Virus record (IMG/VR): IMGVR_UViG_3300025870_001501
Span: 1-43,350 of that record
DNA length: 43,350 nt
Strand: one strand, 5' to 3'
Origin: a virus
Lineage: Duplodnaviria; Caudoviricetes
Shown: piece after piece, positions 3,677 through 25,578 of the stretch
Position numbering within the stretch: position 1 is the stretch's first letter
How the letters are laid out: every line of letters begins with the position of its first letter
Translations under genes and position numbers: made by a program
Notes under the pieces: model-generated
Databases searched by the model: none
Told to the model about the DNA's origin: nothing
What the model saw: the letters and a program-made list of their open reading frames with translations, nothing else

Positions 3677-5581
3677 TTATTTCTTATCTTCTTCTTTGGG
3701 ATCAACTTCTTTAAAGTCAGCGTCTACAATATTTTCTTCTGTGCTTTCGCCTTGTTGTTCCGACTGTGCTTGTTCTTCTTGTGCTTGTTTGTACACTGCT
3801 TCGCCCAACTTCATACTGGCTTCTGTGAGTGTTTTGATTGCTTCTTGAATCTTACTCACATCATCTGTTTTGGATGCGTCGATTAAAGTTGCTTTGGCAT
3901 CTTCAATTGCTTTCTTTTCCTCTTCAGATATCTTGTCGCCATGCTCTTTGAGTTGCTTGTCGATTTGATGTGTCAGTGTTTCAGATTGGTTCTTTGTTTC
4001 TACCAACTCTCTTTTCTTCTTGTCTTCTTCTTTGTTGGCTTCTGCATCTTTAACCATCTGGTCAATGTCTTCATCTGAAAGTCCACCCGATGCTTGAATA
4101 GTGATCTTCTGTTCTTTGCCAGTGCCTTTGTCTTTGGCACTCACACTCAAGATACCATTTGCATCTATATCAAATGTAACTTCGATCTGTGGTAAACCTC
4201 TTGGAGCAGGTGCAATACCTTCAAGGTTAAAGTTACCCAGCAATTTGTTGTCCACTGCCATATCTCTTTCACCCTGTGTAACTCTGATGGTCACTGCCGC
4301 TTGGTTGTCTTCAGCAGTTGAAAACACTTGACTTTTCTTTGTGGGAATAGTTGTGTTCTTTTCTATTACTTTGGTTGTTACTCCGCCCAGTGTTTCAATA
4401 CCAAGTGATAAAGGTGTAACGTCTAACAACAATACATCTTTGACATCGCCTTGCAGTACTCCACCTTGAATAGCGGCACCCAATGCCACCACTTCATCTG
4501 GATTAACTCCTTTGTGTGGTTCTTTGCCAAAAAAGTCTTTGACTGTGTCAAACACTTTGGGCATTCTAGTCATACCACCTACTAACACCACTTCACTAAC
4601 ATCTTTTGCTGTGACCCCAGCATCTTTCAATGCCTGTTTGCAAGGAGAGAGTGTTCGTGCTATAAGATCACCAACTAAACTTTCCAATGTTGCTCTAGTC
4701 ATCTTTATGTTGATGTGTTTAGGTCCTGTTTTATCTGCTGTGATAAAAGGTAGATTGATGTCTGTTTGTGCGGTACTTGACAATTCTATTTTGGCTTTCT
4801 CAGCCGCCTCCCTCACACGTTGTACAGCCAATTTGTCGTTGGCTAAATCAATACCTTGATCTTTTTTAAATTCACTGATGATGTAATTTGTGATTGTAGC
4901 ATCAAAGTCTTCGCCACCCAGTGTTGTGTCACCATTTGTGGATTTAACTTCAAACACTCCGTCACCTAGTTCTAATATAGAAACATCAAATGTACCTCCA
5001 CCTAGATCGTACACAGCAATCGTGCCTGACTTTTTCTTATCCAGACCGTATGCCAACGCCGCCGCAGTTGGTTCATTGATAATTCTTTCCACTTCCAGTC
5101 CAGCAATCTTACCTGCGTCCTTTGTAGCCTTACGTTGACTGTCATTGAAGTACGCCGGTACAGTGATCACTGCCTTTGTAACTTCGGAACCTAGATATTT
5201 TTCTGCTGTTTCTTTCATCTTACGTAAAACAGAAGCAGAAATTTCAGATGGTGCATATTTTTTGCCATTGGCTTTAACCCAAGCATCACCGTTGTCTGCT
5301 TTCACAATTTCGTAAGGAAGTGTTTTGATATCTTTTTGCACAGCATCACCGTCGAATGTTCTACCAATCAAACGTTTCGCCGCAAATATTGTGTTGCTTG
5401 AATTGGATACTGCTTGTCTTTTTGCAGGCATACCAACCAATGTTTCAGAGTCTGTGAATGCTACCACACTTGGAGTGGTTCTTGCTCCTTCTGTATTTTC
5501 AATAACTTTTGCGTCCTTACCTTCCATCAAAGCAACACAAGAGTTTGTTGTACCCAAGTCTATTCCTATTATTTTACTCAT
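3677..5581 (-). CDS. dnaK: molecular chaperone DnaK (Hsp70)
   Basis: [37 protein letters not shown] signatures; 634 aa. Confidence 0.99.
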
Positions 5582-5589
5582 TTTAGTTT

Positions 5590-5605
5590 CTCCTTGTTAA
5601 GCGAG
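5590..5605 (-). promoter_or_regulatory. ROSE-like RNA thermometer hairpin sequestering the dnaK SD
   Basis: mRNA CUC-G-CUU-AAC-AAGGAG: UCGCU motif with bulged G paired to AGGAG. Confidence 0.6.
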
Positions 5606-5625
5606 TTTTTTTTATTATGTAAATT

Positions 5626-5653
5626 ATATAAGCACTCTTTGTCAAATGTCAAG
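5626..5653 (-). promoter_or_regulatory. RpoH (sigma32)-type promoter of dnaK
   Basis: CTTG-N17-CTTATAT, matching the alphaproteobacterial heat-shock consensus. Confidence 0.7.
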
Positions 5654-5666
5654 AGTTTTTGGTAAA

Positions 5667-7322
5667 CTAATCGTAGAAATCCCCAGATTTCATGTTAGTA
5701 TTTTCCACAGGATCCCAATCTTTCTTAACAGACTCGGGTTCATCAAACACTGACGCTCCTGTTGTGATTAATAATCCAGCAATACTTGAAGCATTTATTA
5801 ATGCTGTTTTTGACACTTTGGTAGGATCGATAATACCCAATTCCATCATGTCACCAAAATCACCTGTTCCAGCATCATAACCAAAGTTACCTTTACCTTT
5901 CAGTATTTCATTTATAATCACATCTGGCGATCCGCCTGCGTTCGCAATAATCTGTCTCACTGGAGATTCGAGTGCTTTCAACACAATCTGTATACCTGCT
6001 GTTTGATCTTCGTTGTCTCCTTGCAGATTTTCAATGTTTTGTTTGGCTCTTAAGAAAGCAACTCCACCACCTGGCACAACACCATCTTCAACTGCGGCTT
6101 TGGTAGCATTTAAGGCATCTTCAATTCTGTCTTTTTTCTCCTGCACTTCAACTTCAGTTGCGGCACCCACTCTAATCACTGCGACTCCGCCTGTAAGTTT
6201 GGCTAATCTTTCTTCTAATTTTCTTTTGTCATCGCCACCTTCACTCATTTCAATCTGTTTTTTAAGCTCTGCAACTCTGATGTCTATTTTAGATTTAAAT
6301 CCCTTGCCACCTATGATTGTGGTTGTGTTTTTGTCTACAACTACTCTTGATGCTTGTCCAAGGTCTTCCAATTTGGCTTTTTCTAAAGTTAATCCTGTGT
6401 CGTCTGATATCACTTCACCACCTGTTAGTGTTGCCATATCCTGCAACATTGCTTTTCTGCTGTTGCCATAACCCGGAGCATGAACTGCCGCACATCTAAT
6501 TGTGCCTTTGGCATTGTTCATCACTAATGTGGCTAGTGCCTCTCCTTCAGCATCTTCACACACAAATAAAAACGGTTTGTTCTTTTTGGCAAGTTCTTCT
6601 AATAGAGGAACAATTTCTTGAATAGTTCTAATGTGCTTACCTGTTAATATAATATAAACATCTTCCAATTCCACAAGTTGTTTTGCTGGATTGTTAATGA
6701 AGTACGGACTCATATAACCTCGATCAAATTGCAATCCTTCTACAACTTCCAGTTCATTCTTCATGGTCTTGCCTTTTTCAACAGTGATAACACCTTCTTT
6801 GCCAACCTTTTCCATAGCCTCAGCAATCATAGATCCTATGTCTTTGTCTGAGTTGGCAGATATAGTTCCAACTTGTTCTATTTCGTTCTGTGTTTTACAT
6901 TGTTTTGATATTTTAGAGAGTTGTTCAACCACTACATCAGTGGCTTTGTCCATTCCTCTTTTTAAATCCATTGGGTTCATGCCGGCAGTGATATACTTAA
7001 CACCTTCATTAACAATTGATTGAGCTAACACTGTGGCAGTGGTTGTTCCATCACCTGCTTCTTCGTTGGTTCTGCTGGCAACTTCCTTAACCATCTGAGC
7101 ACCCATGTTGGCTAGATCATCTTTTAATAAAATTTCTTTTGCTACTGTGACACCATCTTTGGTTATTGCTGGAGCACCCCATGTTCTCTGTAGAACAACA
7201 TTTCTACCTTTGGGTCCTAGAGTTATTCTCACAGCATTTGCTAGAATATCTACTCCTTGAATTAGTTTGCTTCTGCTACGAGATCCAAATTCTACTTTTT
7301 TTGTTTTACCATTAATTGCCAT
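5667..7322 (-). CDS. groEL: chaperonin GroEL (Cpn60)
   Basis: [37 protein letters not shown] motifs; no GGM tail. Confidence 0.99.
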
Positions 7323-10430: not shown

Positions 10431-10512
10431 ACTTTATATTACAATAAAACAACCGAAATGTCAATGGTTATAAAGTGCTAGTTTTATTGGCTTTTCATAA
10501 ATATAGATTGAA

Positions 10513-10972
10513 TATGACAAAACTATTAGAACACAAACACATTATAATAAGAGCAGAAGCAAACAATCCTCCTAAGGATGAAACATTTGCTATCAATTCA
10601 CTTGCTAATTTAATCGAACGCATTGATATGAAACTGTTGATGGGTCCGTTTGCCAAGTATGTTGAAATGGAAGGCAACCGAGGATTAACTGTTGCCGCAA
10701 TTATAGAAACCAGTCACATTGTATTACATAGTTGGGACGAACCATCGCCTGCTATCATACAACTTGATGTGTACACTTGTGGAGCATTTGATCCCAACAC
10801 AGTGTTTGAATGGTTACAACAGTTTGATATAGGTAAAGTAGATTGGAAATATATCGATAGAGAACACGGTTTACAAGAACTAGATTACACCCCTCCAGCA
10901 AGACCCTTGCCAACACACAATTACACAACCACAGAAATTGTTGAAGCAATGGACAGCATACTTTCTAGATAA
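10513..10972 (+). CDS. speD: S-adenosylmethionine decarboxylase proenzyme
   Basis: GLTVAAIIETSHIVLHSW...QLDVYTCG, pyruvoyl self-cleavage family motif. Confidence 0.85.
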
Positions 10973-10993
10973 ATATGTTTATCACACAACCTA

Positions 10994-11215
10994 ATGGAGG
11001 TGAGCATGAAGTTACGATCCATTCAGATAAATCTAGCACTAGGTCAACAGATTCTAGTTGGTCACAAGGAAGAAAAAGCAACCATCACAAAAATAGAACA
11101 TTTTGAAAAGTCTGGAGATGTGGTTATAAAGACCACTAGAGGCACTAGGAAGGCACTCACTTTTAAGATGTTACCAGAGGTTCAGGCGGGCAATTCAGCA
11201 GACAAATATCGCTAA
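10994..11215 (+). CDS. hypothetical protein
   Basis: TAAATA upstream; GGAGG before second Met. Confidence 0.65.
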   Translation: MEVSMKLRSIQINLALGQQILVGHKEEKATITKIEHFEKSGDVVIKTTRGTRKALTFKMLPEVQAGNSADKYR

Positions 11216-11223
11216 ATATTTTT

Positions 11224-11460
11224 ATGAAAGTACAAGAAGTAATAATATCCGAAGCAGGGCCTGCCAGTAAAGCATTGTGTAGAAGCAAAAAACCTGATCA
11301 TGCACTGGGTGCCAGTCAGTTGGCAAGTTGTAAAAGTCAAGGTTACAGAAAACGTTCAGGAAAAAAATCTTACAAGATTGGCAAGAAGAGAGTTTATGTT
11401 TCTGGAAAGAAGATTAAAGGCGAGCCATACGGCGGACCATTACCATTGTATAGTAAATGA
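11224..11460 (+). CDS. small basic putative head-internal protein
   Basis: MKVQEVIISE N-terminus; Lys/Arg-rich; TAAATA-N5-ATG. Confidence 0.65.
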   Translation: MKVQEVIISEAGPASKALCRSKKPDHALGASQLASCKSQGYRKRSGKKSYKIGKKRVYVSGKKIKGEPYGGPLPLYSK

Positions 11461-12011
11461 GAACATCGATAACAGGATCTAAATGGCAAAATAAGATACT
11501 AATCTCTACTCCCAAAATGGGACAGGATAGTACATTTGCAAGAAGTGTAGTATTTGTGTATGAAGAGTCTCCGCAACATGTGGCAGGACTTGTTATTAAT
11601 AAACCCACAAGAACAAAATTAAAAAAGATATTAGAATCTAAAGGATTTGCAACAGTTGACATGAAGGACCTAGTTTACCAAGGTGGACCAGTAAACCAAG
11701 AAAGTATTTTATTACTACACACAGACGAATGGAGTTGTAAGAACACTCTTAAATTGGGTAACGGATTCAGTTTAACAAGTGATGCTCAGATGTTAAAAAA
11801 ATTACACGAAGAAGATTCACCAGACGAATGGAGATGTTTTAGTGGATTAAGTGTGTGGTCACCAGGACAATTAGAAGGAGAAATCAACAGCAAGTGTTGG
11901 TTGACTGCAGAACCATCAGAAGAATTGCTTTTAAACACTCCTATTGAACAGATTTATGAAAAAGCAATTAAAATCTGCTCACAACAAACATTCAACAAAT
12001 ACATAGATTAA
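11457..12011 (+). CDS. YqgE/AlgH family protein (DUF179)
   Basis: LISTPKM-D-FARSVV, GLVINKP, YQGGPV, WSPGQLEGEI. Confidence 0.9.
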   Translation: MRTSITGSKWQNKILISTPKMGQDSTFARSVVFVYEESPQHVAGLVINKPTRTKLKKILESKGFATVDMKDLVYQGGPVNQESILLLHTDEWSCKNTLKLGNGFSLTSDAQMLKKLHEEDSPDEWRCFSGLSVWSPGQLEGEINSKCWLTAEPSEELLLNTPIEQIYEKAIKICSQQTFNKYID

Positions 12012-12036
12012 ACTGAGTAGTTAACTAAATACTGAT

Positions 12037-13215
12037 ATGCTTTCAGTTAATCCTTTTCAGGACATCATCAACAATCTCAAAGAGTCTGGAAATTACAGAG
12101 TTTTCAATGACATTCTTCGTGAGAGAGGTGAATACCCAAATGCTATATGGTATGGCAAATACAATATTAAAAATATTGTGAATTGGTGTTCAAATGATTA
12201 CCTAGGTATGGGTCAACATAAGGTGGTTCTAGATGCTATGCATACTGCATTGGATCAAACAGGTGCAGGCTCTGGTGGGACTAGGAACATAGGTGGAACC
12301 AGTCACTACCATGTAGCACTTGAAATTGAATTGGCTAAACTGCACAGCACTGAGTCGGCATTACTTTACAGTTCTGCCTACGTTGCAAACGAATGGAGTC
12401 TAATTGCATTAAAACGCATCATTCCTGATATTGTGTTTATTAGTGACAGCAAGAATCATGCTTCATTAATACAAGGTATCAGACATAGTGGTGCTGAGAA
12501 ACATATTTTCAAACACAATGATCTCGAGCAATTGGAATCTATACTCAAAACTTGTAAAGGCACACCTTGTATTGTCTTTGAATCTGTGTATAGCATGGAT
12601 GGGTTCATGAGTAAAATTACGGAAATCTGTGACCTAGCAGAAAAGTATGGTGCTATCACATATCTTGATGAGGTTCACGCAGTCGGCTTGTATGGAAATA
12701 AAGGCGGAGGTGTTACTCAAAAATTAGATCTACAAGATCGAATAGATATTTTGAATGGTACACTTGGTAAAGCCTTTGGCACACAGGGAGGTTACATCGT
12801 TGGTAAGTCTATTGTTTTAGACGCAATACGTTCTGTTGCCTCGGGCTTTATCTTTACAACTTCAATGAGTCCTGTGATTTGTGCAGGTGCATTGGCAAGT
12901 GTCAAGTATGTTGCAGACAACAACGACTTAAGAATAAAACATCAAGAAAGAGCAAACAGACTTAAAGAAATTTTTCGACAGAAAAACATTCCAATGATTG
13001 AAAACGAAACTCACATAGTTCCGGTTCATGTTGGAGAGGCTAAGAAGTGTAAAGCAATCAGCGATACACTGATAAATGAATATGGAATATATTGTCAAGC
13101 AATAAATTATCCAACAGTTGAAGTAGGCACAGAGCGACTACGTTTTGCACCGACACCGTTCCATACAGATGCAATGATGCATGATTTAAGAGACGCTCTA
13201 GAAAAGGTACTATAA
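12037..13215 (+). CDS. hemA: 5-aminolevulinate synthase
   Basis: [42 protein letters not shown] (PLP Lys), FIFTTS. Confidence 0.96.
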
Positions 13216-13634
13216 TGAATAAGATAAAAAAATATTTGTATCAAGCATTGGGATTTCTATGTGTGGGTATTGCCTACATAGGTTTTGTTACTCCAGGAAT
13301 ACCATTCTCGATATTTTTAGTGGTTGCCGCTTGGGCATTTGCAAAGAGTTCACCTAAGATGGAGGCTTGGTTGTATAACCATCCATGGTTTGGTAAATTC
13401 TTAACCAACTGGACAAAGAAAAGAGTATTTCCTATAAAAGGAAAATACGCAATGATATTAGTAATGAGTTCCACTTTAGCATTTACTTGGTATTTCACAG
13501 GTAATATGAAAGCAGTATTATGGTCAGGCATATCCATGGCACTAGTGGCTGTTTGGGCATGGCGTTATCCTTCTACTGTAGAAGAACACAATGCCAGAGT
13601 GAAAGCAGGCAAGAAGATTGGTTGGCTAAAATAA
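13215..13634 (+). CDS. ybaN: YbaN/DUF454 inner-membrane protein
   Basis: IGFVTPGIP...FAKSSP...WLYNHPWFG; TAATG-coupled to hemA. Confidence 0.85.
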   Translation: MNKIKKYLYQALGFLCVGIAYIGFVTPGIPFSIFLVVAAWAFAKSSPKMEAWLYNHPWFGKFLTNWTKKRVFPIKGKYAMILVMSSTLAFTWYFTGNMKAVLWSGISMALVAVWAWRYPSTVEEHNARVKAGKKIGWLK

Positions 13635-13637
13635 TAT

Positions 13638-14213
13638 GTGTTTAAAAGAATAGAAAACGTATTATCAGAAGCAGACTACAATCAATTACACGATACATTA
13701 TCATCGTTCCAATTTGACTGGCACTACTTGCCATCGTCTGTTCCACCAGATGTAATAGATGTTGTAAGTAAATCAAACTCATTTAACTTATACGAGCCTG
13801 GACAATTTGTTCACATGTTCTACGATCAAAAACCGTTGAGTCCTTATTGGAAGTTGGTCGAACCTATTTTGAAATCACTAGATAAACCGGTGGTAGAGAT
13901 GGGCAGAATCAAAGCCAATTTATTGATGCAGAATAACAGCGATAATCATGCTGTGAATTGTCCACATGTGGATAGAGATCGAGAAGGTTGGCACAGTTTA
14001 ATATATTATCTTAACGACTCCGATGGTGACACTGTATTGTTCGATAAAAAAGGCAACAGCGGATGGGATAATTTACAAGTTCAAGACACAGTAACACCTA
14101 AGAAAAATACTGCTGTGCTGTTTGAAAGCGATCAGTATCATGCTGGAACGAATCCTGTTGACAACCCTAGACGAATTGTGTTAAACTTTATTTTAAAATT
14201 TAAAAATGACTGA
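13638..14213 (+). CDS. 2OG-Fe(II) oxygenase
   Basis: PHVD...YYLNDSDGDT...HAG...RRIVLNF. Confidence 0.85.
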   Translation: MFKRIENVLSEADYNQLHDTLSSFQFDWHYLPSSVPPDVIDVVSKSNSFNLYEPGQFVHMFYDQKPLSPYWKLVEPILKSLDKPVVEMGRIKANLLMQNNSDNHAVNCPHVDRDREGWHSLIYYLNDSDGDTVLFDKKGNSGWDNLQVQDTVTPKKNTAVLFESDQYHAGTNPVDNPRRIVLNFILKFKND

Positions 14214-14868
14214 TAAGAACTTTAATATGATTCCGTTGTTTGGTATACCTTTGTATCAAACTGTGATAGAACCTGGTGTTAGCGAAGAAGAATTAAAATT
14301 TATCAAAGAACAAAAGTACGAAAGATTTGCCGCAGACAACGGATTTGGTTCTGTGGATAAATTTTTGTTAGACAATCTAGAATTAAAACAGTTAAAACAA
14401 AAACTTTTACATAAATGTGAACACTACATTCACGAAGTGTTAGACATTGATGAATCTAAAGCAAAGTTTGACATCACAAATAGTTGGAGTGTGAAACATA
14501 TTAAAGGTGATGAAAGCGATGCTCACACTCATGCAGGTAGTATGTTCAGTGCTGTTTACTATCTTCAAACAGAACAAGACAGTGGAGAAATTGTTTTTCA
14601 TAAAGAAAAAACAAACTACAATGTCTTGACACCAACGGTGAATGTGCCATACAAAAATAAAAACTTTAATATCTGTAACTCAGACGTATTTGCTATGCCT
14701 CCTCAAAATAATATGATGGTAGTTTTTCCTTCAACATTACCACACAGTGTTGAGCCTAGTAAAAGTAACACAGAACGATTTTGTATTGCTTTTAATCTAT
14801 TTGCTTTTGGCAAATTTGATCAAGGAGGAAGATCTCAATTAGGTTTACTCAACATTACAAAAACATAA
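14206..14868 (+). CDS. putative 2OG-Fe(II) oxygenase (TIGR02466-like)
   Basis: HTH...FSAVYYL...VFPSTLPHSV...RFCIAFN. Confidence 0.85.
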   Translation: MTDKNFNMIPLFGIPLYQTVIEPGVSEEELKFIKEQKYERFAADNGFGSVDKFLLDNLELKQLKQKLLHKCEHYIHEVLDIDESKAKFDITNSWSVKHIKGDESDAHTHAGSMFSAVYYLQTEQDSGEIVFHKEKTNYNVLTPTVNVPYKNKNFNICNSDVFAMPPQNNMMVVFPSTLPHSVEPSKSNTERFCIAFNLFAFGKFDQGGRSQLGLLNITKT

Positions 14869-14876: not shown

Positions 14877-15104
14877 ATGGATGATCGTATGCACATGGAA
14901 GAAATTAACCTAGTCGATTTATACCAAGAAGAAATTGATTTTCTTAATCAACAAAACAAATCGTTAGAAAAATCTACAGATCCTATAGACCAAAGACAGT
15001 GCTGGAAAAACGAAATTGTGATTCAATATTTCAAAAGAAGAATTGATGAAGAATTAGATATACAAGGTCAATTCAGAGCTCAATTGCCTAAAACTTTACA
15101 TTAA
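14877..15104 (+). CDS. hypothetical protein
   Basis: TAAATA-N5-ATG. Confidence 0.65.
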   Translation: MDDRMHMEEINLVDLYQEEIDFLNQQNKSLEKSTDPIDQRQCWKNEIVIQYFKRRIDEELDIQGQFRAQLPKTLH

Positions 15105-15511
15105 TTGCAACTGCTGATAACTTTAAGATACATGGAATCGTATTCCCAGTTAACACCGTGAACTTCCAATAGATATTTTTTTTGAAGTGGATATATTTCT
15201 GCTTCAGATTGTGCCATACAATCAAACTTGGTGCCCACAGCATCATTCAAGTCGTGTACATAATGCATTAACTCATGCATCAATACACCTTTGTCAAACA
15301 CATTGAACATATTAAAAGTGTCTTTAAGATATATGGTGTCTGTGCTAGGATCATACAAAGCATGGATCTCACCGTCTGGTACGACATCACCAAAGTGCAT
15401 TTGATTTAAACTGCTTTGACTCACCATCTTTATTGCCGGATGTGGAATCAGAGTGTTGTAATCTGTTTCTGCACCAATCCACAATAATATAAAAGCAACC
15501 AATGTTTTCAT
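15101..15511 (-). CDS. HEXXH zinc-metallopeptidase-like protein (DUF6647-like)
   Basis: ALYD...TIYL...VLMHELMHYVH...EAEIY; start reassigned by TAAATA-N5-ATG. Confidence 0.7.
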   Translation of the reverse strand: MKTLVAFILLWIGAETDYNTLIPHPAIKMVSQSSLNQMHFGDVVPDGEIHALYDPSTDTIYLKDTFNMFNVFDKGVLMHELMHYVHDLNDAVGTKFDCMAQSEAEIYPLQKKYLLEVHGVNWEYDSMYLKVISSCN

Positions 15512-15644
15512 GCAAATATTTAAAATAAACAAGGTGTTTATTTTAGTGTCTTTTAAGTTATGTGAGTAGTTAATACTTAATAGTATCTGATTATAATAAC
15601 AGCATACTTTATTAAATATTAGTATATTAAAAGAGGGCAACTAC

Positions 15645-18600
15645 ATGGCAATTTTTACAGATCCGTTAGCAATTGGAAAAGTTACCACAGCCGAACAACC
15701 GTTCACAATTCAACGTGGTAATGAAACGATAGAATTAAGCGAAGGTGATTTCATCTATCTAGATGACATGATCAGTGCTGGCGGAACTGCTGTGGGTATT
15801 GCTTTCGCAGACGAAACCACAATGTCTGTTGATCCAAACAGCACCATGACAATAGATGATTTTGTGTACGATCCCGAAAACCCCACTGTGGGATCCATGA
15901 ATGCCAATGTATTAGAAGGTAACTTTTCTTTTGTTTCAGGACAGATCGCCAAGACAGGTAACGATGCTATGAAAGTCACAACACCTGTGTTGACAATAGG
16001 TGTTAGAGGTACACAGGTTGCGGGTAAAGCCAACACAGAAGGCGAAGACAACGAGATAGTACTACTGCCCAACAGTGATGGTTCAGTTGGACAAATTTTA
16101 ATTGCCAACCAATCAGGCGAAGTGCTACTGACAAAACCATACGAGGCCACTATTATTGCAAACGCATATGTACCACCAACAGTTCCTGTGATCCTGCCAA
16201 AGGCAGAAGTGCTCAAGAAATTTGCTAAAACTATCTCCACAACACGTAAGACGGAAGCCAAAGCGGAAGTGGAAAGAGAGACAGAGGAAGCCACTAAAGA
16301 AAAAGCAGAAGCAGAAAAAGAAGGCGAGGAACTGGAAGAAGAGAAAGAACAACTAGAAGAAGAAAAAGAACAACTGGAAGAGGAAGCCGAGGAACTTGAA
16401 GAAAAATCTGAGGAACTGGAAGAGGAGGCGGAAGAACTTGACGAGGAGGCCGGAGAGCTGGAAGAAAAAGAAGAAAAGGTTCTAGAAGAAAAAGAAGAAA
16501 AACAAAAAGCCAAAGAACAAAAAGAGAAGGAAATTGAAGAACTAGAAGAACAACTGGAAGACATTCCTGTCGAGGAAAGAGAAATGATCGAACAGGAACT
16601 GCAACAGTTGGAAGAAGAATTTCAAGAGATCGAGGAAGAGGTACAACAGATCGAACAAGAGATCGAAGTGATCGCCCAGGAGAAAGCAGTTGTGGAACAA
16701 AAAGTTCAAGAGATAGAAAAAGAATTTGCTGAAATCAAAGAGGATTTTGCAGACATAGAAGCCAAAGTAGAGTTTGTAGAAAAAGAAGTGCTACAGGTTA
16801 TCGAAAAGGAACTAGTGATTGAGCAAAGAGTTCTGGCTGTGGAACAAAGATTCGAAGCCATCGTACAAAACTTTGAAAAATTCCAAGAGGAATTCGTACA
16901 AGAGTTTGAAGAATTTATACCAGTGGAAGAAATGCAACAGTTCAAAGAAGAAGCACCACAAGAAATGATGCGTGATGTACAAGAGAACGTCATGGAAGAA
17001 TTTAATGAAGTGGTGGAAGCACCACAAGAGATCATAGAAGAGGAACCCAAAGATATCTTTGCTGAGGAGAACGTGGAAGAGCAGATGCAGGAGATGGAAA
17101 ACAACGAAGAATTCCAGGAATTTGAAAAGATGATGGAAGAAGAAATGGCACCAGAGGGATTCAATGAGGACAATGACGTGTTCAACGTTGCTGAAGAAAA
17201 TCAAGTGGATGATCAAGCAGTGGAACAGTTTATACAGGAAGAAAAACAAAAAGCATTAGCAGAAGCCCCCATAGCACAAGAGATAGACAACTTCTTACAG
17301 GAGATAGATCCTGACAATGAAATGATTGACCAACAGGTCCAGGACATGATTGTGATAGAATCCCAGCACATAGATGAATGGTTTGATGGTGCTGGTGCAG
17401 GCATCAACAGTGTTGAGGATTTTTACGCCCTAGAGGAAAACGATTATTGGGATGTCATAGACAACAACGAGGATGCCTATAACGATTCCATGGAGGCAGA
17501 TTACATCATGGATCAGTTCATATACGAAATGGCAGAGGAACAAAACATCAACGTGGCTCCTTGGTTGGACATGCCAGCCGCAGTCACAGGTAATGAGAAC
17601 ACAGCAGTTGGCACAACACTGGGTTACGTGTATGGTTCAGATGCCAATGGCGATCAATTGACTTATTCTATATTTGATGATCCATCAGGCAACATTGGCA
17701 TAGACGGCAACAGGTTGTACCTGGCCAATGCTTTGAGTGTCACTGAAGATGTCACATTCAATGTGCTTTTGAAAGTGCAGGATCCATACGGAGCATCAGA
17801 CATAGACTCATGGCAAGTGACTGTGGAGAACAATCACTCACCTGTGATATCCAACACCAGTGCTGTGTCATTGGCAGAGGATGTCAGTACAGGCACATCA
17901 GTGGCAACAATATCTGCCTCGGATGCAGAGAGTGAAGCAATCACATATTCAATCACGGCAGGTAACACAGGCAACGCATTCACAATCAACTCCAGCACAG
18001 GTGCAATCACCACAGCGGCGGCACTGGACTATGAGACCACAACCAGTTACAGTTTGACAATCACAGCCACAGACGCATTTGGCAACGTGACCACTACCAC
18101 GCAGACTGTGAACGTCACAGACGTCAGCGAGGGTGCCAGCATACACGAAAACATATTGGACTTTGAAGACGTACACTCCGGCAACGACGGTGGCGAGATA
18201 GCCTACAAACTGAACGTGGGTTACTACGACATGGTCTCAGGTCAAGGTGACACAACCAATCAGGCGAGGATCATTGAGAACACAGGACACACAGCAACCA
18301 ACCTGACCAATGTTCGAACTTCCGATCTTTCGAACATAGACATCCTTTATGCACACAACGGAAGCAACAGTTCCTATTCCTCTGAATGGTTCACAGGCAC
18401 TGGTCAGTCAAGTGATAGTGCGGCAAGTAGTTCCAGCAGTGCCATATGGAGTTGGGTCAACGATGGTGGTATACTTTTGGTACAGGACAGACACGTGACA
18501 AACGCAAACGCGATGTTGTTGGGTGAGTCAGCCACAATCACAAAAAAACTTGGTTCTGGCCTAAACGATGACACAGACTTCAGGACGGAACTGAACGACA

Positions 18601-19304
18601 CCCTATTGTACAACGGTGCGGCGGGCACACTGACCAACAACACCCTGGACGGTGGTGACCACACTGACCACGGCCACATCACCAACCTGGGCACAGGCGA
18701 GGTGGGCATAGGACACAGGGGATCAAACAACGCCACTCCAAACGGTGAGAGTTACAACAACGCATTTGCCTACAAGTACGGTTCGGGACTGGTGTACTAC
18801 GACACATATCCCATGGACCTCTGGGACGCATACGGTGTCAACGATACATACACTGCCAACAGCCAATTAAAAACAGGTGGTGCACAGACCTACAACGAGA
18901 ATCTCATACAGTGGGCGGCGTCGCTGTACTATGACGGGGCATCACAGATCAACGGTACCAGCAGTTCTGAAACCATATTTGGAACCATGGGTGATGACAC
19001 AATATTCAGCAAGGACGGCGCAGACGAACTGTGGGGCGGTGCGGGTGCGGACACCTACATATACAAACAGGTTTACCAGTCAGATCCAGGTGGTGACGGA
19101 CAGCAAAACGACACTATTATAGATTTCAATTACAGCGAGGACAGGATTGACATCAGTGCTATAACGAATGGTGCAAGTATTTCAAGGACCTTAGTCAACA
19201 ACACACTGTTCAAAATAGACACCGACAACAACGGCAGTTATGACATGCAATGGGATCTGGACGGCTACACAGGCACAGCAGACCAAGTAACTGTGGTAAC
19301 ATAA
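15645..19304 (+). CDS. giant T1SS-type substrate/adhesin: FecR domain, Glu-rich coiled-coil stalk, cadherin repeats, RTX/T1SS C-terminal signal
   Basis: FecR motifs (FADETTMSV, TPVLTIGVRGT); LDYETTTSYSLTITATD cadherin; GADELWGGAGADTY RTX nonapeptides; DTIIDFN...DRIDIS export signal; no signal peptide. Confidence 0.85.
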   Translation: MAIFTDPLAIGKVTTAEQPFTIQRGNETIELSEGDFIYLDDMISAGGTAVGIAFADETTMSVDPNSTMTIDDFVYDPENPTVGSMNANVLEGNFSFVSGQIAKTGNDAMKVTTPVLTIGVRGTQVAGKANTEGEDNEIVLLPNSDGSVGQILIANQSGEVLLTKPYEATIIANAYVPPTVPVILPKAEVLKKFAKTISTTRKTEAKAEVERETEEATKEKAEAEKEGEELEEEKEQLEEEKEQLEEEAEELEEKSEELEEEAEELDEEAGELEEKEEKVLEEKEEKQKAKEQKEKEIEELEEQLEDIPVEEREMIEQELQQLEEEFQEIEEEVQQIEQEIEVIAQEKAVVEQKVQEIEKEFAEIKEDFADIEAKVEFVEKEVLQVIEKELVIEQRVLAVEQRFEAIVQNFEKFQEEFVQEFEEFIPVEEMQQFKEEAPQEMMRDVQENVMEEFNEVVEAPQEIIEEEPKDIFAEENVEEQMQEMENNEEFQEFEKMMEEEMAPEGFNEDNDVFNVAEENQVDDQAVEQFIQEEKQKALAEAPIAQEIDNFLQEIDPDNEMIDQQVQDMIVIESQHIDEWFDGAGAGINSVEDFYALEENDYWDVIDNNEDAYNDSMEADYIMDQFIYEMAEEQNINVAPWLDMPAAVTGNENTAVGTTLGYVYGSDANGDQLTYSIFDDPSGNIGIDGNRLYLANALSVTEDVTFNVLLKVQDPYGASDIDSWQVTVENNHSPVISNTSAVSLAEDVSTGTSVATISASDAESEAITYSITAGNTGNAFTINSSTGAITTAAALDYETTTSYSLTITATDAFGNVTTTTQTVNVTDVSEGASIHENILDFEDVHSGNDGGEIAYKLNVGYYDMVSGQGDTTNQARIIENTGHTATNLTNVRTSDLSNIDILYAHNGSNSSYSSEWFTGTGQSSDSAASSSSSAIWSWVNDGGILLVQDRHVTNANAMLLGESATITKKLGSGLNDDTDFRTELNDTLLYNGAAGTLTNNTLDGGDHTDHGHITNLGTGEVGIGHRGSNNATPNGESYNNAFAYKYGSGLVYYDTYPMDLWDAYGVNDTYTANSQLKTGGAQTYNENLIQWAASLYYDGASQINGTSSSETIFGTMGDDTIFSKDGADELWGGAGADTYIYKQVYQSDPGGDGQQNDTIIDFNYSEDRIDISAITNGASISRTLVNNTLFKIDTDNNGSYDMQWDLDGYTGTADQVTVVT
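16325..16480 (+). repeat. degenerate 21-bp tandem repeat (E-L-E-E-E-x-E heptads)
   Basis: About 7 copies of a GAACTGGAAGARGAR-type unit. Confidence 0.75.
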
Positions 19305-19317
19305 ATATAGGTATATA

Positions 19318-21054
19318 ATGAACAAATTCGTACACTACATTTTGATAGCAATCATGTTCAACTGGAACATAGCCGTCTTTGCGGAAGACAGTGGAGGGTG
19401 TGAATGGGAAGTGGTGGAAGTAACTGAAACTTATATTCAAGAGAAGTGTGGAGACAATCAAGTAAGAATTAAGTCCAAACCTATTGAAGGCATGAACATT
19501 GAGATAGTTGAAGCACCCAAAAATAAAAAAAACAATCCCATAAAAGAATTCAAAGACAAAGTAGAAAAGGCTCCCAAAGTTATTGAGAAAGTTGAAAAAC
19601 TTGAGAAGATAGAACAGGAAGTCATAGCCACAGAAGATAAAGTTAAAGAACATATTGAGAAAAAGAAACTGGCAGAAACACCTGTTGCAGAAACAACAAA
19701 ACCCAAAGTTAAAAAAGAAATTGCTAAAAAACAAGTTGATGCCAAAGCAGATGAAAAACTGGTAAAACAAGCCACAGAAAAAGCATGGTCAGATGTTGAC
19801 GCTGATCAAAAAATTACATGGATGCAGTTCCATGAATTGCTACCAAGACTGATCGTTGAGAATGAAAAGATCAAAGCGGCTGAACTGGATTACGAAGCGG
19901 CTGTTGAAGCATTAAAATCAGAATACACAGCATACTATCCTCAGGTTTCTGTATCAATTGGCAACAACTGGGAAGATGATAGAACTCCTGCAAAAGGTAC
20001 ATATCCCAACAACACAATCACACACGATTCTAAACAGGGCATACAAAAATCAATCACAGTCACACAGATGATCTGGGACGCAGGCAGAACCACTGCCATG
20101 ATAGACAAAGCCAAAGCAACTGCTCAACAGGCACACTATAGATTGGAACTTACAAAAGAAGATGTTGTAATAGAGGCAATCAATGCTTGGTTAAATTTAC
20201 AAAAGGCTTACAACACACACGAAGCGAATAAAAAAATAGAAGCCAATGCTAAAGTTACATTGTCTATGACAATAGAAAAAGTGAAAAAAGGCGAAGGTTC
20301 TAAACTTGAACAATTACAAATTGAACAACAGTACAGAACATATCAAACTCTTTCAATGACAAGTAGATTGGGATTAGACAGTGCTATACAAAGATTTCAA
20401 AACGTTTGGAGATTCAAACCACACAACATCGCAGGCATGCCAAAACCTTTGGCAGACGCACTGGGCATAATTCCTGTACAAGGAACTCCAGTGTCCAACA
20501 ACACAACACTGCGTATTGCCAGCATGGATGTTACTATTGCTCAAGAACAATTAAATTTTGATAGAGCAGAATTTAAACCAAGAGTGGACGGCAAACTGTC
20601 TTACACAGAGAAGGACGGTGAACTGGCAGGTGGATATGATACAAGTAATTCGCAGAAAGAAGAATGGAGAGCAGACATCACCATGACATGGAAGTTATTC
20701 AATTTCAAGAACAGACACATGACCAATGCAGACCGTTCTCGTTTGAATGCCGCTAACTTTAGATATTCTAATGTGTTAAGAACCACACAGGAACAGTTCA
20801 ACAACGCATGGAACAACTACGTGTTGGTTGAAAAGAATCTAGCCACTCTGAAGAGAACAGTTGAGATAAATCAAGAAATGTACAAACTCACACTGGCAGA
20901 CTTCCAAGCAGGTAACTCACCCATAATGGCGGTGTTTGGTATGAAGACAGCACACTTAATGAGTGAGGTTGCGTATCTAAACGCACAGATAGATTGGCAG
21001 ATAGCAAGATATCAACTGCACAAGGTGTTAGGTGTTGTAGACCCACTTCTATAA
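19318..21054 (+). CDS. TolC family outer-membrane channel with K/E-rich N-terminal extension
   Basis: Signal peptide; two OEP repeats (YYPQVSVS...TQMIWDAG; FKPRVDG...TWKLFN; FQAGNSPIMAV). Confidence 0.85.
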   Translation: MNKFVHYILIAIMFNWNIAVFAEDSGGCEWEVVEVTETYIQEKCGDNQVRIKSKPIEGMNIEIVEAPKNKKNNPIKEFKDKVEKAPKVIEKVEKLEKIEQEVIATEDKVKEHIEKKKLAETPVAETTKPKVKKEIAKKQVDAKADEKLVKQATEKAWSDVDADQKITWMQFHELLPRLIVENEKIKAAELDYEAAVEALKSEYTAYYPQVSVSIGNNWEDDRTPAKGTYPNNTITHDSKQGIQKSITVTQMIWDAGRTTAMIDKAKATAQQAHYRLELTKEDVVIEAINAWLNLQKAYNTHEANKKIEANAKVTLSMTIEKVKKGEGSKLEQLQIEQQYRTYQTLSMTSRLGLDSAIQRFQNVWRFKPHNIAGMPKPLADALGIIPVQGTPVSNNTTLRIASMDVTIAQEQLNFDRAEFKPRVDGKLSYTEKDGELAGGYDTSNSQKEEWRADITMTWKLFNFKNRHMTNADRSRLNAANFRYSNVLRTTQEQFNNAWNNYVLVEKNLATLKRTVEINQEMYKLTLADFQAGNSPIMAVFGMKTAHLMSEVAYLNAQIDWQIARYQLHKVLGVVDPLL

Positions 21055-21084
21055 TATTGTCAAATCAATTAAATACTACTATAT

Positions 21085-21834
21085 ATGACAAGTTTTTTAC
21101 GACAATTATTCCGCGATAAATCAAACGCCATAATGCTATTAACAAGCAGTTTGATCATTGCCATCTGTGCGTTGGCTCCGGCCTTGTTTGTGATTATTGT
21201 GTTGAACAAGTATCTAGCATCTGGAGTTACATCCACCCTGATATCTTTGGGTATGGGTGCCATACTATTGTTGGCATTTGAATTTGGTTTCAGACAGAAC
21301 AGAGCAGGCATGATACAGCAGTTGAACATTAGGATATTCACTCCATTGTTGAATGCATATGCAAAAAAGATTAAAGAAACTCAGATCACAGGAGAACAGT
21401 TTAAAAGATTAGAAGTTGCAGGTGGAACAATTAAGGGTGCAACCGGTTCCAGCATTACTGGTTGGATATTGGATTGGCCATTTGTGTTGGCATTTCTTAT
21501 TGTGCTACTCTATATCAATTGGACAGCGGCTTTGATTGCTGGGATATTCATGATCATCATGATGGTGTTAACAGCACAGAGATTGAATCTCAGTCTACAA
21601 CAGGACAGCACAGCAAATTTAGAAATATTTTTAACAGGACTAATGACAGTGGTCATCATGTCAGTGGGTGCGACACAAATTATCGCAGGTTCATTGGACG
21701 TGGGATTATTAATAGGTTCCAACATATTGGCGGCAAGAGCACTGCAAGGTGCTAACAAATATGCCAAAGCAAAGGAGGCAATAGAAAAACGTGACCGAGC
21801 AACAGCAGAAATCATCAATTTCATCAAACAATAA
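21085..21834 (+). CDS. T1SS ABC-transporter transmembrane domain only (no NBD)
   Basis: LAPALFVIIVLNKYL...STL, LDWPF, GSLDVGLLIGSNILAARAL match PrtD/LapB-type TMD; no Walker A or LSGGQ. Confidence 0.8.
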   Translation: MTSFLRQLFRDKSNAIMLLTSSLIIAICALAPALFVIIVLNKYLASGVTSTLISLGMGAILLLAFEFGFRQNRAGMIQQLNIRIFTPLLNAYAKKIKETQITGEQFKRLEVAGGTIKGATGSSITGWILDWPFVLAFLIVLLYINWTAALIAGIFMIIMMVLTAQRLNLSLQQDSTANLEIFLTGLMTVVIMSVGATQIIAGSLDVGLLIGSNILAARALQGANKYAKAKEAIEKRDRATAEIINFIKQ

Positions 21835-22516
21835 ATTCTTTGGCTTGTTGACAAGTCTATTTGTTGTGTTCTTTGTATGGATGTCATTTTCCAAAGTCGA
21901 TATAACTTCTGTCGCCAACGGACTGGTAATACCTGAAAAAAATATCACAACACTTGGCACAATGGTTACAGGAGAAATTGTGAAAGTGAACCACAAGCAA
22001 GGAGACGTGGTTAAAAAAGGCGACATCATAATCACAATTAATCCCGGAGTAGGATACGAACCTTATCACATACGAGCAAACATAGATGGGAAGATACAAC
22101 AACTTACATTTAAAAATCCAGGCTCTGTGGTAAAACAAGGTGACGCACTGGCAGTGCTGGTACCCCTAGATCAAAAATTAATTGTTCAAGGACAATTGCA
22201 AATAAAAGACAGAGGCTATGTAGAAGTAGGACAAACAGCAAAAATTAAATTGGCAAGTTCAGAAGCATTCACATACCTTCCAATAGTAGCCAAGATAATT
22301 TCCATATCTCCTGATGCTGTACAAGGACAAGCAATGTCGTTCTATGAAATAGAATTAGAATTAGATTCACAGGCTTTTGCCAACGGAGACTTGCAGTACA
22401 AACTAGTGCCTGGTGTACAAGTACACGTGTTTATCTTGACTGGAGAACGTACAATATTGAGTTACGTGACAACACCCTTTCACAACAGCATAGGCATGGC
22501 ACTACAGGAGAGATAA
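21791..22516 (+). CDS. HlyD family membrane fusion protein, helical hairpin missing
   Basis: N-terminal TM; GEIVKV..KQGDVVKKGD; IRANIDG; ISPDA; LVPG; TGERTILSY; only 241 aa. Confidence 0.85.
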   Translation: MTEQQQKSSISSNNKFFGLLTSLFVVFFVWMSFSKVDITSVANGLVIPEKNITTLGTMVTGEIVKVNHKQGDVVKKGDIIITINPGVGYEPYHIRANIDGKIQQLTFKNPGSVVKQGDALAVLVPLDQKLIVQGQLQIKDRGYVEVGQTAKIKLASSEAFTYLPIVAKIISISPDAVQGQAMSFYEIELELDSQAFANGDLQYKLVPGVQVHVFILTGERTILSYVTTPFHNSIGMALQER

Positions 22517-22517
22517 C

Positions 22518-22874
22518 ATGGAACAAAAGAAATTAACAATCAGGGAAAGATGGCGTAAGGCTATGACTGCGGACAACATGGTTGATCTCAGTGTTGACAT
22601 CTTCCTCATTGTGTTCGACGTGTTGAGCTCTCCCATACTGATCGTCATGAGAATTGTGCGTTGGATATTGGCCAAGTTCGTCAATGACCATGTAAAGAGT
22701 TTTATCAAGAGGATAGTGCATTGGTTCTTGGACAACAGGAAGATCAGACTAGAACGAGGACAGAACATATTCCGTTACTACTGGTACCTGTGGATGTTGA
22801 GTCCTTTTATTGTTTTTGCGTTGTGGATGCTGATAGCAGTCACAATAGGATTAAGACAAGGTGCAGGACTGTAA
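22518..22874 (+). CDS. small membrane protein
   Basis: Two hydrophobic segments; GGAG RBS; TAATG-coupled to the cyclase. Confidence 0.75.
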   Translation: MEQKKLTIRERWRKAMTADNMVDLSVDIFLIVFDVLSSPILIVMRIVRWILAKFVNDHVKSFIKRIVHWFLDNRKIRLERGQNIFRYYWYLWMLSPFIVFALWMLIAVTIGLRQGAGL

Positions 22875-24799
22875 TGAAGATATTCACAAGCATATGGATG
22901 GTGATAGTGTTTGCGATTGTGCTGACAGGAATCAGGATAGACAACAGCGACACAGTAAAAATTATTAGATATAAGACTTGGGACAAATTTCAAACAATTC
23001 AACCAAGACAGATGGTAAGTGATTCTGTCACTGTTGTAAACATCACAGAACAAGATATTAAGACGTATGGACAATGGCCATGGCCCAGACATGTGATGGC
23101 TATGCTACACGCAGAGTTGTCTGATGCAGGTGCAATCCTTGTGAACTACAATATAATGTTTGCTGAACCAGACAGAATGAGTGGTGTTGAATATCTAAAA
23201 TCAATGCCTATGACCAATGATTTGCGAGAGCAATTGGGACAAGCATTGTTGGACACAGATGCAATATTCTCCATAGTGTTGAAAGAATCTAAGAAAGCCA
23301 TTTTAATGATGAGTGTTAAAAACACTGCTGACACAAACTTACCCAGCACAACACAGATCATAGAAAAAGGCAACGTGAAGCCATGGTTATACGAGTATGA
23401 AGGCATAGTGTCCCCAAATGCAAAAGTTTCCGTAGGTGCAACAGGCATGGGTGTGAATGTTACTTCACCGGAACCAGATGCTGTTGTGAGAAAGATGCCT
23501 GTGTTAATACGTGTGGGAGATAAGATATATCCCTCTATGCTACTAGAGAATGTTAGACTTTTAAATAAATCAAAAAGAATCAAAGTCATAGCAAAACAAC
23601 ACGGCATAGACGAAGTGCTTGTGAGCAAGAAGGCAGGTATACCTGTGAATCATAATGCAGAAATGTATATCAACTATGCAGACCCTTCAATGTATGTTAA
23701 TGTGTCAGCCACAGATATACTGACAGGCAATTACAACGAAAACAAAGTTAAAGGCAGAATTATTGTTATAGGTTTGGATGCCGCAGGATTGAGTGTGTTG
23801 AAATATACACCGCATGGACTTACAACAGATCAAATGATTACTGCCCAATCATTGGATACATTGTTAACAGGCAAATATTTGTTGCGTACACCACAAGCAG
23901 ACACATATGAAATTGCGTTCCTGGCGTTGTTATTATTGCTGTTGATATTAGTACTGCCTAGAACCAGTGTGTTGTTGGCTGTACCTCTTTTATTATTTGT
24001 GGAAGTAGGTGTTGCCTACGGAGCATTCACGGCATACACTAACAAAGGATTTCTTGTAGACCCATCTTGGATAATGTTGTCTGTGTTTTTAATTTGGTCT
24101 CATTCTGTGTACAACAACTTTGCGACACAGAGCAGATTGAAACAACAGATCAAGAAACAGTTTGAACACTACCTTGATCCTGGCATGGTTAAAAAATTAC
24201 AAAAGGATCCCAGCCTACTTAAACTGGGAGGCGAGACAAAGAACATGACTTTCTTGTTCTGTGACATCAGGGGCTTCACACCTATCAGTGAGAAGTACAA
24301 AGGCAATCCAGCAGGACTCACAAAACTTATTAATAGATTCTTGACACGCATGACAGATGTTATAATCTCAAATGGTGGAACAATAGACAAGTTTATGGGT
24401 GACTGTATTATGGCATTCTGGAACGCACCTATTGAAAATAAAAAACACAGAGAACTAGCAGTTAAAAGTTCTTTGGAAATGACTGTGGCATTGGCAGAAT
24501 TGAATATGCATCTACAAGCAGAAGGACTTCCACAGATCAACATAGGAATAGGAATCAACACAGGCGATGCATTGGTGGGTAACATGGGATCGGAACAGAG
24601 ATTTGATTACTCTGTGATTGGCGATGCAGTTAATCTAGCAAGTAGATTAGAGAGCTCATCTAAAACATTAGGCAAAACCATAGTGATAGGTGAGAACACA
24701 AGACACACAATAGAAACAGTTTACCCGTTTGAGTACATTGACAGCATCACAGTCAAAGGTAAGACTGAAAATATAAAAGTTTATACTATTCCTTTATAG
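22874..24799 (+). CDS. CHASE2-domain class III adenylate cyclase
   Basis: GQWPWPR CHASE2 motif; 3 TM; CDIRGFT, DKFMGD, DYSVIGDAVNLASRLE with all catalytic and ATP-specifying residues; start reassigned to ATG 22874. Confidence 0.93.
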   Translation: MKIFTSIWMVIVFAIVLTGIRIDNSDTVKIIRYKTWDKFQTIQPRQMVSDSVTVVNITEQDIKTYGQWPWPRHVMAMLHAELSDAGAILVNYNIMFAEPDRMSGVEYLKSMPMTNDLREQLGQALLDTDAIFSIVLKESKKAILMMSVKNTADTNLPSTTQIIEKGNVKPWLYEYEGIVSPNAKVSVGATGMGVNVTSPEPDAVVRKMPVLIRVGDKIYPSMLLENVRLLNKSKRIKVIAKQHGIDEVLVSKKAGIPVNHNAEMYINYADPSMYVNVSATDILTGNYNENKVKGRIIVIGLDAAGLSVLKYTPHGLTTDQMITAQSLDTLLTGKYLLRTPQADTYEIAFLALLLLLLILVLPRTSVLLAVPLLLFVEVGVAYGAFTAYTNKGFLVDPSWIMLSVFLIWSHSVYNNFATQSRLKQQIKKQFEHYLDPGMVKKLQKDPSLLKLGGETKNMTFLFCDIRGFTPISEKYKGNPAGLTKLINRFLTRMTDVIISNGGTIDKFMGDCIMAFWNAPIENKKHRELAVKSSLEMTVALAELNMHLQAEGLPQINIGIGINTGDALVGNMGSEQRFDYSVIGDAVNLASRLESSSKTLGKTIVIGENTRHTIETVYPFEYIDSITVKGKTENIKVYTIPL

Positions 24800-24929: not shown

Positions 24930-24943
24930 TGTATTCTCCTTTT

Positions 24944-25070
24944 GTAAAATAATACTTGTAAATTTACTTATAGTAAACTTATAGTAAATTTCGTCGAAAA
25001 TCAATGTCTAAGGTGTAAATTGTGTTGAATGTTTGTAAATTTAAATTTACAAAATTTACAAATAGTAAAT
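24944..25070. repeat. GTAAA/TTTAC box array with perfect 22-bp palindrome
   Basis: GTAAA at 24944, 24958, 24973, 24984, 25015, 25035, 25065; TTTGTAAATTTAAATTTACAAA at 25032-25053. Confidence 0.65.
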
Positions 25071-25297
25071 TATTTTTTCTTTTCTCTAGCAGTTTTGACT
25101 TTGGTCTGTAATCTTATCAAATCGTTGTCGAGCAACCTTATCCTATCTATGAGTTTGATTAGTGTTGCTGACGTAGAACTCAACTTGGGTGTGATTTCTG
25201 TTGTAATAAACTTCCACAGGAAGTAAATGAAGTATGCTAGAAAGAATACAGCAACAATAGGAAATCCGTAATCGTTTATGAGTGTAACTATGTCCAT
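25070..25297 (-). CDS. small holin-like membrane protein
   Basis: INDYGFPIVA + TM + coiled coil. Confidence 0.65.
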   Translation of the reverse strand: MDIVTLINDYGFPIVAVFFLAYFIYFLWKFITTEITPKLSSTSATLIKLIDRIRLLDNDLIRLQTKVKTAREKKK

Positions 25298-25578
25298 CAG
25301 TCTTTCCTCGCATCTGTCTTGCCGTCTGCTCTAGCCACCCTGTCTGTGTCTATTGGCAATCCTAGTTGTTCGGAAACTTCTTGGTCTATTTTAAGTATGT
25401 CGTTGTTCATGGTCTTCACCCTGTTGTCCAGTTGTGAGATCACAGTCTCGATGAACTTGATGGAGTTTACTATGCCATTCAGGATGTATTTTATAATGAA
25501 CAGTATGAATACACCCATTCCCACTGTGGCGGCAATTGGTAATCCTAGCTCTGCTACTAATTGAAAGAACTGTGTCAT
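25297..25578 (-). CDS. small holin-like membrane protein, paralogue of neighbour
   Basis: VAELGLPIAA + TM + LDNRVKTMNNDILKI (neighbour: LIDRIRLLDNDLIRL); TATAAATA upstream. Confidence 0.65.
   Translation of the reverse strand: MTQFFQLVAELGLPIAATVGMGVFILFIIKYILNGIVNSIKFIETVISQLDNRVKTMNNDILKIDQEVSEQLGLPIDTDRVARADGKTDARKD

Follow-up and report, generated by a model that had tools for sequence, protein, structure and literature searches.

A reduced type I secretion-like kit encoded by phages beside a FecR-domain giant protein and a CHASE2 cyclase

Results

A conserved six-gene module

The 43,350-nucleotide stretch of DNA analysed here (the window; positions 1 to 43,350 of IMG/VR virus record IMGVR_UViG_3300025870_001501) carries at 15645..24799 six open reading frames (ORFs), all on the plus strand, that encode a giant FecR-domain protein, parts resembling a type I secretion system (T1SS), and a CHASE2 cyclase. 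A first-pass annotation had described six co-oriented, tightly packed genes and read them as a surface sensor, in which an adhesin displayed through TolC would signal to the cyclase through its periplasmic FecR end. ORF calls and Pfam domains bear out the genes and the names given to them:

15645..19304, plus strand: giant adhesin-like gene; 1219 aa; Pfam FecR, one cadherin and one RTX block
19318..21054, plus strand: TolC-family outer-membrane channel gene; 578 aa; Pfam OEP
21085..21834, plus strand: ABC-exporter membrane-domain gene; 249 aa; weak Pfam ABC_membrane match, E 0.004
21791..22516, plus strand: HlyD-type adaptor gene; 241 aa; Pfam HlyD_3 and lipoyl
22518..22874, plus strand: small two-helix membrane protein gene; 118 aa; no family match
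22874..24799, plus strand: CHASE2 cyclase gene; 641 aa; Pfam CHASE2 and Guanylate_cyc

The cyclase ATG at 22874 overlaps the stop of the preceding gene, homologues begin at the equivalent position, and translation most likely starts there, giving 641 aa. A 692-aa cyclase from a TTG at 22721 was rejected because homologues start at the 22874 ATG. The small gene between HlyD and the cyclase is present in 13 of 31 loci and is therefore optional; we rejected it as a core part of the module. One contig from an RNA run omits it.

Gene order is conserved in marine viral contigs, where a search for this synteny had been proposed as a check. In the metagenome set (the best 80 of 230 loci, picked by likeness to the short form, one of them identical to the window), TolC is the immediate upstream neighbour in 75 of 75 testable loci, and the cyclase lies downstream in 53 of the 54 whose contig reaches far enough. 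Among viral loci with TolC, the order TolC-ABC-HlyD-(small)-cyclase is kept in 11 of 11, three of which are near-identical. No TolC relative was found among 50,697 GenBank phage records. All six genes are under purifying selection, with median dN/dS values of 0.07–0.14 (controls 0.07 and 0.12; pairs with dS 0.1–1.5).

An export kit without motor or bridge

The TolC-family protein (PF02321, E 1e-49; TIGR01844 match under the curated cut-off) has an N-terminal hydrophobic signal and a charged N-terminal extension of ~150 aa. Aligned with full-length alphaproteobacterial relatives (mostly 564–574 aa), the phage ABC gene ends before the nucleotide-binding domain. Its protein is also ~50 residues short in the long cytoplasmic loop that precedes the final conserved helices, a loop that we take to be the one coupling to the ATPase. 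Of 78 complete phage ABC copies, 76 are 248–251 aa and none is longer. A fitting stand-alone ATPase was not found on 10 partial phage contigs (11–47% complete); PF00005 exceeded its cut-off on one of the ten, in an unrelated operon ~14 kb away that we take to be a Suf operon. The gene run at L088:237-2187 on a related phage contig we take to be Suf-like Fe-S assembly.

The adaptor is similarly shortened: it lacks the ~185-aa alpha-helical hairpin of bacterial adaptors, and its lipoyl halves are joined by a short linker, of 14 residues in 58 of 62 parsed adaptors and of 68 residues, enough to keep a short hairpin, in 4 of 62. The L035 adaptor likewise keeps a short hairpin, an intermediate step. 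In metagenomes, the short adaptor has 1589 protein matches of 127–406 aa with E values of 1e-20 or better, some of which may be fragments. As far as sequence defines it, the export kit is a stripped type I kit that lacks both ATPase and hairpin, not a complete T1SS.

A giant protein with a FecR/retention domain

The giant protein has no signal peptide, no Cys and a net charge of -200. An N-terminal FecR/retention domain is followed by an acidic helical stalk (~aa 200–640), a cadherin domain (741–825), a variable head (835–1100) and the RTX block (1104–1137). Phage giants as a group have no signal stretch, net charges of -170 to -288 and 0–1 Cys. A Pfam RTX match recurs in one of six other phage giants, plus L209, which makes RTX a minor feature, and the head gives a weak Atlas lead to DUF4960 (0.90, 158 shared features). 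Giants at L011:6919, L057:523, L065:1553, L209:3905 and L102:6951 carry an extra domain of 78–135 aa before FecR that is absent from the window.

15669..16235, plus strand: N-terminal FecR-fold domain; match to the MpIBP retention (cell-surface anchoring) domain over its first half

This domain matches the profile of the MpIBP retention domain, PDB 5IX9, at E 1.7e-4. The structure predicted for the first 200 residues (pLDDT 91.5) superposes on 5IX9 with an rmsd of 1.3 Å over 61 columns (E 0.015) and on the anti-sigma domains 4M0H and 6OVK (PupR) with TM 0.50–0.57 over about 150 columns. NCBIfam retention models found no match in the giant protein. Unlike a complete FecR-type cell-surface signalling anti-sigma factor, the giant has no membrane helix with a cytoplasmic anti-sigma domain and no ECF sigma or TonB transducer neighbours. 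General scans found no LapG or LapD among the module's neighbours, no dedicated search having been made. Residues G122-T123 (nt 16008-16013) are invariant in 71 of 71 FecR-domain sequences; a Gly-Thr bond is where FecR and FoxR cleave themselves (PMC9249621).

In a tree built from 34 of the ~76 available FecR domains, the eight phage giants group with the Rhodospirillaceae T1SS cargo L102 (99/97), itself a long branch, and apart from the FecR proteins that other phages encode with curli export genes. An N-terminal hydrophobic stretch is present in 53 of 54 curli-type FecR proteins versus none of 8 phage T1SS giants, and with the signal peptide confined to the curli type, two export routes would bring the same domain to the periplasm. 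Profile match, predicted fold and signal-peptide pattern thus support a periplasmic anchoring and signalling role for the FecR end of the giant, as the first-pass annotation had suggested.

A reading without adhesin display would make the kit a passive trans-envelope leak or a lysis-timing pore, with the giant as a plug or gate read by the cyclase. Motor and bridge are both absent, a phage promoter motif precedes three of the genes (below), and a pore has been proposed for the curli counterpart in phage Melnitz (PMC9004378). However, the giant retains extracellular-type domains (cadherin, RTX), a variable C-terminal half and a composition like that of T1SS cargo, and its closest FecR relative is a bacterial T1SS cargo. 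We therefore find a pore without display very doubtful and keep to an exported, periplasmically anchored adhesin.

A cyclase whose sensor sorts with the export cassette

The cyclase has CHASE2, membrane helices and intact catalytic motifs (DIRGFT, DKFMGD, VNLASR), features that identify it as a CHASE2 receptor class III nucleotidyl cyclase. Lys and Ser at its base-selecting positions presumably point to ATP as the substrate.

A module of curli (T8SS), FecR and adenylate cyclase genes has been published for pelagiphages in PMC9599517, whose accessible text makes no mention of T1SS or TolC. HTVC008M (KC465899) and Melnitz (MZ577097) hold a related FecR (35%) and cyclase (32–35%) in the gene order csgF-csgG-curlin-fecR-curlin-cyclase; CsgF, CsgG and curlin are not in the window. 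Among viral FecR loci (the best 80 of 581), CsgG is found in 74, a cyclase in 63 and TolC in one. The two kits share a slot: L077, from the same jumbo lineage, has a curli cassette between the same flanks as in the window, and L036 has both cassettes and two cyclases.

Catalytic domains of T1SS-type and curli-type cyclases intermix, the curli-type ones being 80–94% identical to the window's. CHASE2 domains sort by cassette, with identities of 35–87% within and 21–32% between cassettes, and those of T1SS-type loci form one group with support 99 (FastTree only). Across the L073 and window cyclases, identity is 88–100% over aa 441–640 and 10–45% over aa 1–400, which places the recombination boundary between sensor and catalytic part near aa 400–440 (~nt 24070-24190). 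By these sequence comparisons, relatives exchange the T1SS kit for the curli kit by recombination inside the cyclase gene. Both the sensor sorting and the intragenic identity jump support a genetic match between CHASE2 and its cassette.

Another kind of curli cassette, oriented in reverse, occurs at L036:3848-10527 and in L064 and L080-L087. It encodes a signal-bearing FecR protein of 730–736 aa and a shorter cyclase of 547 aa; in L036, two cyclases flank the cassette.

Adhesin export and cyclase might nonetheless be functionally separate, mere neighbours in a recombination hotspot. The cognate cyclase is missing at L081 and L328, 17 of 20 bacterial neighbourhoods have no CHASE2 cyclase, and the distance correlations are confounded by linkage: that of FecR with CHASE2 (0.50) is lower than that of FecR with CsgG (0.60), and co-evolution is not separable from linkage. 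But the pairing of FecR with a CHASE2 cyclase persists across two export systems that are unrelated to each other and across several orientations (63 of 80 FecR loci), and it recurs in unrelated bacteria, in Campylobacterota clusters (PMC9239204). Functional separation thus appears distinctly unlikely, and we favour a FecR end that acts on the cyclase.

Intact relatives in Alphaproteobacteria

Of 91 genomes in the order to which alphaproteobacterial genome G006 belongs, 69 encode FecR-like domains of the phage's kind. An alphaproteobacterial contig, L250, holds a CHASE2 cyclase, a FecR-RTX giant, a full ABC protein, a full adaptor and TolC together. We infer that the phage module is a reduced descendant of such a bacterial cluster.

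These relatives bear on an account with the same anchored sensor in which export is powered by an intact T1SS of the host, the phage membrane domain and short adaptor serving as scaffolds or as a poison of host export. As scaffolds, they would keep TolC and the adhesin's FecR end beside the cyclase. Intact relatives of all parts exist in marine Alphaproteobacteria, FecR-like domains or giants being as widespread as noted above, and loss of the ATPase-docking loop makes the phage membrane domain an unlikely pump. Yet the phage export parts are merely ~30–37% identical to their alphaproteobacterial counterparts, strongly conserved membrane helices suggest a cargo path, and the host might be without a T1SS. 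Host-powered export is, in our estimate, unlikely but a serious contender; we continue with export through the phage's own reduced kit.

The first-pass annotation knew of no described phage system like this one, a statement that holds for the T1SS form and not for the general plan. An export kit with FecR and adenylate cyclase has been published for curli pelagiphages (PMC9599517), and an intact T1SS version lies on a bacterial contig; the T1SS phage version was not found in print. Literature searches returned no printed phage T1SS, closed journals and supplements that might list T1SS-like genes being outside their reach. This analysis adds that the two cassettes share a slot, that the sensor is swapped within the cyclase gene, that the signal peptide switches with the export type and that the cluster exists intact on a bacterial contig.

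Phage origin and assembly

The window is a virus record that encodes GroEL, DnaK, NrdAB, 2OG-Fe(II) oxygenases and a virion protein. A 148-kb contig of a close relative (102 ORFs of at least 150 aa scanned outside the module region) encodes a phage DNA polymerase, virion proteins, a tail fibre and an endolysin. Its polymerase is nearest to those of the jumbo phages Phosso (49.7%), Vibrio 2.275.O and 121Q, and the window gene at 25964 matches only Phosso and Atu_ph07. CheckV completeness of the 148–172 kb carrier contigs is 41–47%.

An assembly chimera, host contamination or decaying pseudogenes could also account for such a locus. No single contig from an independent run covers the whole stretch, and neither gp23 capsid nor Terminase_6N matched on 5 carrier contigs each, the gp23 control being likewise without a match anywhere. 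Against an artefact, gene order and flanks recur in independent contigs, and contigs from four runs in separate studies cover 30, 30, 30 and 29 of 30 bins. In run X3, depth is even over module (22–46) and flanks (27–29), and one contig extends from 11000 into the giant gene. The phage motif described below (30 of 30), dN/dS of about 0.1, and the polymerase, tail-fibre, virion and endolysin genes on the 148-kb contig point the same way. We rejected host contamination on the phage motif, flanks, phage genes on the same contig and even depth, in agreement with the earlier view of a phage-borne module, and give an artefact of any kind next to no chance. Contigs from RNA runs of 3 studies touch the module and say nothing on transcription, strand or level.

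The phage motif is TAAATA, which stands before the first three genes:

15613..15618, plus strand: TAAATA promoter-like motif before the giant gene
19302..19307, plus strand: TAAATA before tolC; overlaps the giant gene's stop, free-standing in L001, L011, L057 and L065
21070..21075, plus strand: TAAATA before the ABC membrane-domain gene

TAAATA shows no overall enrichment in the window (31 observed, 39 expected). Of the 61 window genes, 16 have it at most 50 nt upstream, versus 1.7% of random positions, and across 14 loci it lies upstream of the giant gene in 7 of 7 cases, tolC in 9 of 9 and the ABC gene in 14 of 14. Such positional conservation marks a real phage expression signal, to judge from sequence. 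The first-pass annotation had gone further and wired the module into the phage late programme. That timing is not demonstrated, because TAAATA also precedes nrdA and nrdB; the label 'late' rests, we assume, solely on likeness to the T4 late box. A literature search found no paper on TAAATA as a jumbo-phage late promoter.

Neighbouring features

Two features border the cassette slot:

25070..25575, minus strand: paralogous small gene pair, phrog_18771; accompanies both T1SS and curli cassettes, 58 of 80 loci
15101..15511, minus strand: DUF6647 gene, HExxH motif; in this lineage of phages it lies upstream of the slot; module membership uncertain

In many relatives the gene pair comes after the cyclase and shares its strand; here it is inverted. 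Judged by position, it probably corresponds to the 'HK' genes of PMC9599517. The DUF6647 protein has a hydrophobic N-terminus, and HExxH is present in 6 of 6 full-length copies; it is possibly an exported metallopeptidase able to release the adhesin.

Window positions 24940-25075 are AT-rich and contain short repeats as well as a perfect 22-nt palindrome near 25032-25053. Exactly this place is matched by many unrelated contigs (a depth spike with loose ends), which marks a shared element, perhaps origin- or operator-like. Elsewhere, phage DnaK and GroEL genes lie side by side at 3677-7322 on the minus strand. Upstream of the module, 10475-14868 holds S-adenosylmethionine decarboxylase, AlgH-like DUF179, class I/II aminotransferase and DUF454 genes and two 2OG-Fe(II) oxygenase-like genes. 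At 35670-37280 lies the gene for a likely tail spike, a pectate-lyase-like beta-helix protein whose N-terminal domain is of the Mtd family.

Discussion

Gene content, the two deletions, purifying selection, the FecR-domain fold, the intact catalytic motifs and the sorting of CHASE2 are direct observations. Our reading of them is a TolC-held surface adhesin whose periplasmic FecR end controls the cyclase, exported without an ATPase of its own. Display, binding and cAMP output are proposals, and we hold the whole tentatively, at slightly less than an even chance. The giant likely passes through the phage TolC and is kept there by its N-terminal FecR/retention domain, which would sit in the periplasm. 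Like LapA-type adhesins, it would leave C-terminus first and without a signal peptide. The energy could come from folding outside and from the membrane potential, which would act on the highly acidic chain, and the route would run through the membrane domain as a passive conduit and the short adaptor to TolC, which would dock on that adaptor. In the periplasm, the FecR domain would contact CHASE2 and set cyclase activity, and surface contact would alter cAMP in the infected cell. A host receptor would read the cAMP, most likely switching the cell to an adhesive or superinfection-resistant state.

Several points weigh against this reading. A canonical T1SS requires both missing parts, so display would not be possible by the canonical route, and the search for a separate ATPase covered contigs of only 11–47% completeness. 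Self-cleavage at G122-T123 could undo the retention plug. Linkage by itself could make CHASE2 sort with the cassette, loci L081 and L328 have T1SS genes without an adjoining cyclase of their own type, and among 20 bacterial neighbourhoods of FecR giants, taken from the strongest matches, only 3 contain a CHASE2 cyclase. Finally, no cyclic-nucleotide-binding protein was found in 5 phage contigs, which would leave the cAMP to be read by host machinery.

A broader version, which we consider rather unlikely as it stands, is a plug-and-play device by which marine jumbo phages would sense the surface of the infected cell: interchangeable export modules, either an ATP-free type I conduit or curli, would place the FecR anchor in the periplasm, bring a matched CHASE2 and feed a shared cyclase domain. 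The module is a natural test of the need for ATPase and adaptor hairpin in type I secretion, in a metagenome-abundant family that keeps the rest under selection. Under the broader version, the T1SS form would be the first ABC-fold protein exporter working with neither, and giant adhesins would use their retention plug for signalling as well. As a second independent implementation, it would explain the published phage curli-FecR-cyclase block, the constant being periplasmic FecR plus CHASE2 cyclase and not the fibre. Natural chimeras supply cognate and non-cognate FecR-CHASE2 pairs, so the long-open question of what CHASE2 senses becomes testable.

Parts of the proposal have precedents. As a whole, the module would resemble an anchored adhesin of the LapA type coupled to a cAMP relay of the NsrA/CyaK type. 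LapA is one for an N-terminally retained adhesin (10.1101/198937), and LapA/MpIBP-type adhesins share with the phage giant a signal-less, acidic chain, cadherin/RTX domains, an N-terminal retention match and a TolC partner. In the phage giant, by contrast, the plug forms the first half of a complete domain of FecR fold, and the kit, unlike LapBCE, lacks ATPase and hairpin, is tied to a cAMP cyclase and is phage-encoded. For the missing parts, Borrelia BesA is an adaptor without the hairpin (PMC3807786), as in the phage, and SbmA has an ABC-like fold and is proton-driven (PMC13316013). By description, SbmA/BacA resemble the phage membrane domain in having an ABC fold without ATPase. By analogy, BesA and SbmA suggest that each deletion is singly compatible with function; SbmA/BacA import peptides and BesA effluxes drugs, so that neither exports protein, unlike the proposed phage kit.

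CHASE2 cyclases act downstream of an outer-membrane sensor in bacteria as well (PMC13001267, PMC9239204). Both Sinorhizobium NsrA-CyaD1/D2/K-Clr and the Campylobacterota clusters link outer-membrane sensing to a CHASE2 cyclase and cAMP, as proposed for the phage, although the sensor there is a beta-barrel protein and the proposed phage sensor a TolC-threaded adhesin. NsrA is said to have a FecR domain. Among alphaproteobacterial T1SS with FecR-RTX cargo, L102 and L250 have TolC, FecR-RTX giant, ABC protein and adaptor as in the phage, and L250 the cyclase too; unlike the phage's, their ABC proteins (575–577 aa, with ATPase) and adaptors (429–435 aa, with hairpin) are intact. The curli-FecR-cyclase module of phages shares with the window a phage-borne export kit, a FecR protein, a CHASE2 cyclase, the small gene pair and the slot. 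It differs in that the window has TolC/ABC/HlyD instead of CsgF/CsgG, a FecR domain fused to a signal-less giant adhesin, and FecR and CHASE2 domains that fall in groups separate from those of the curli module.

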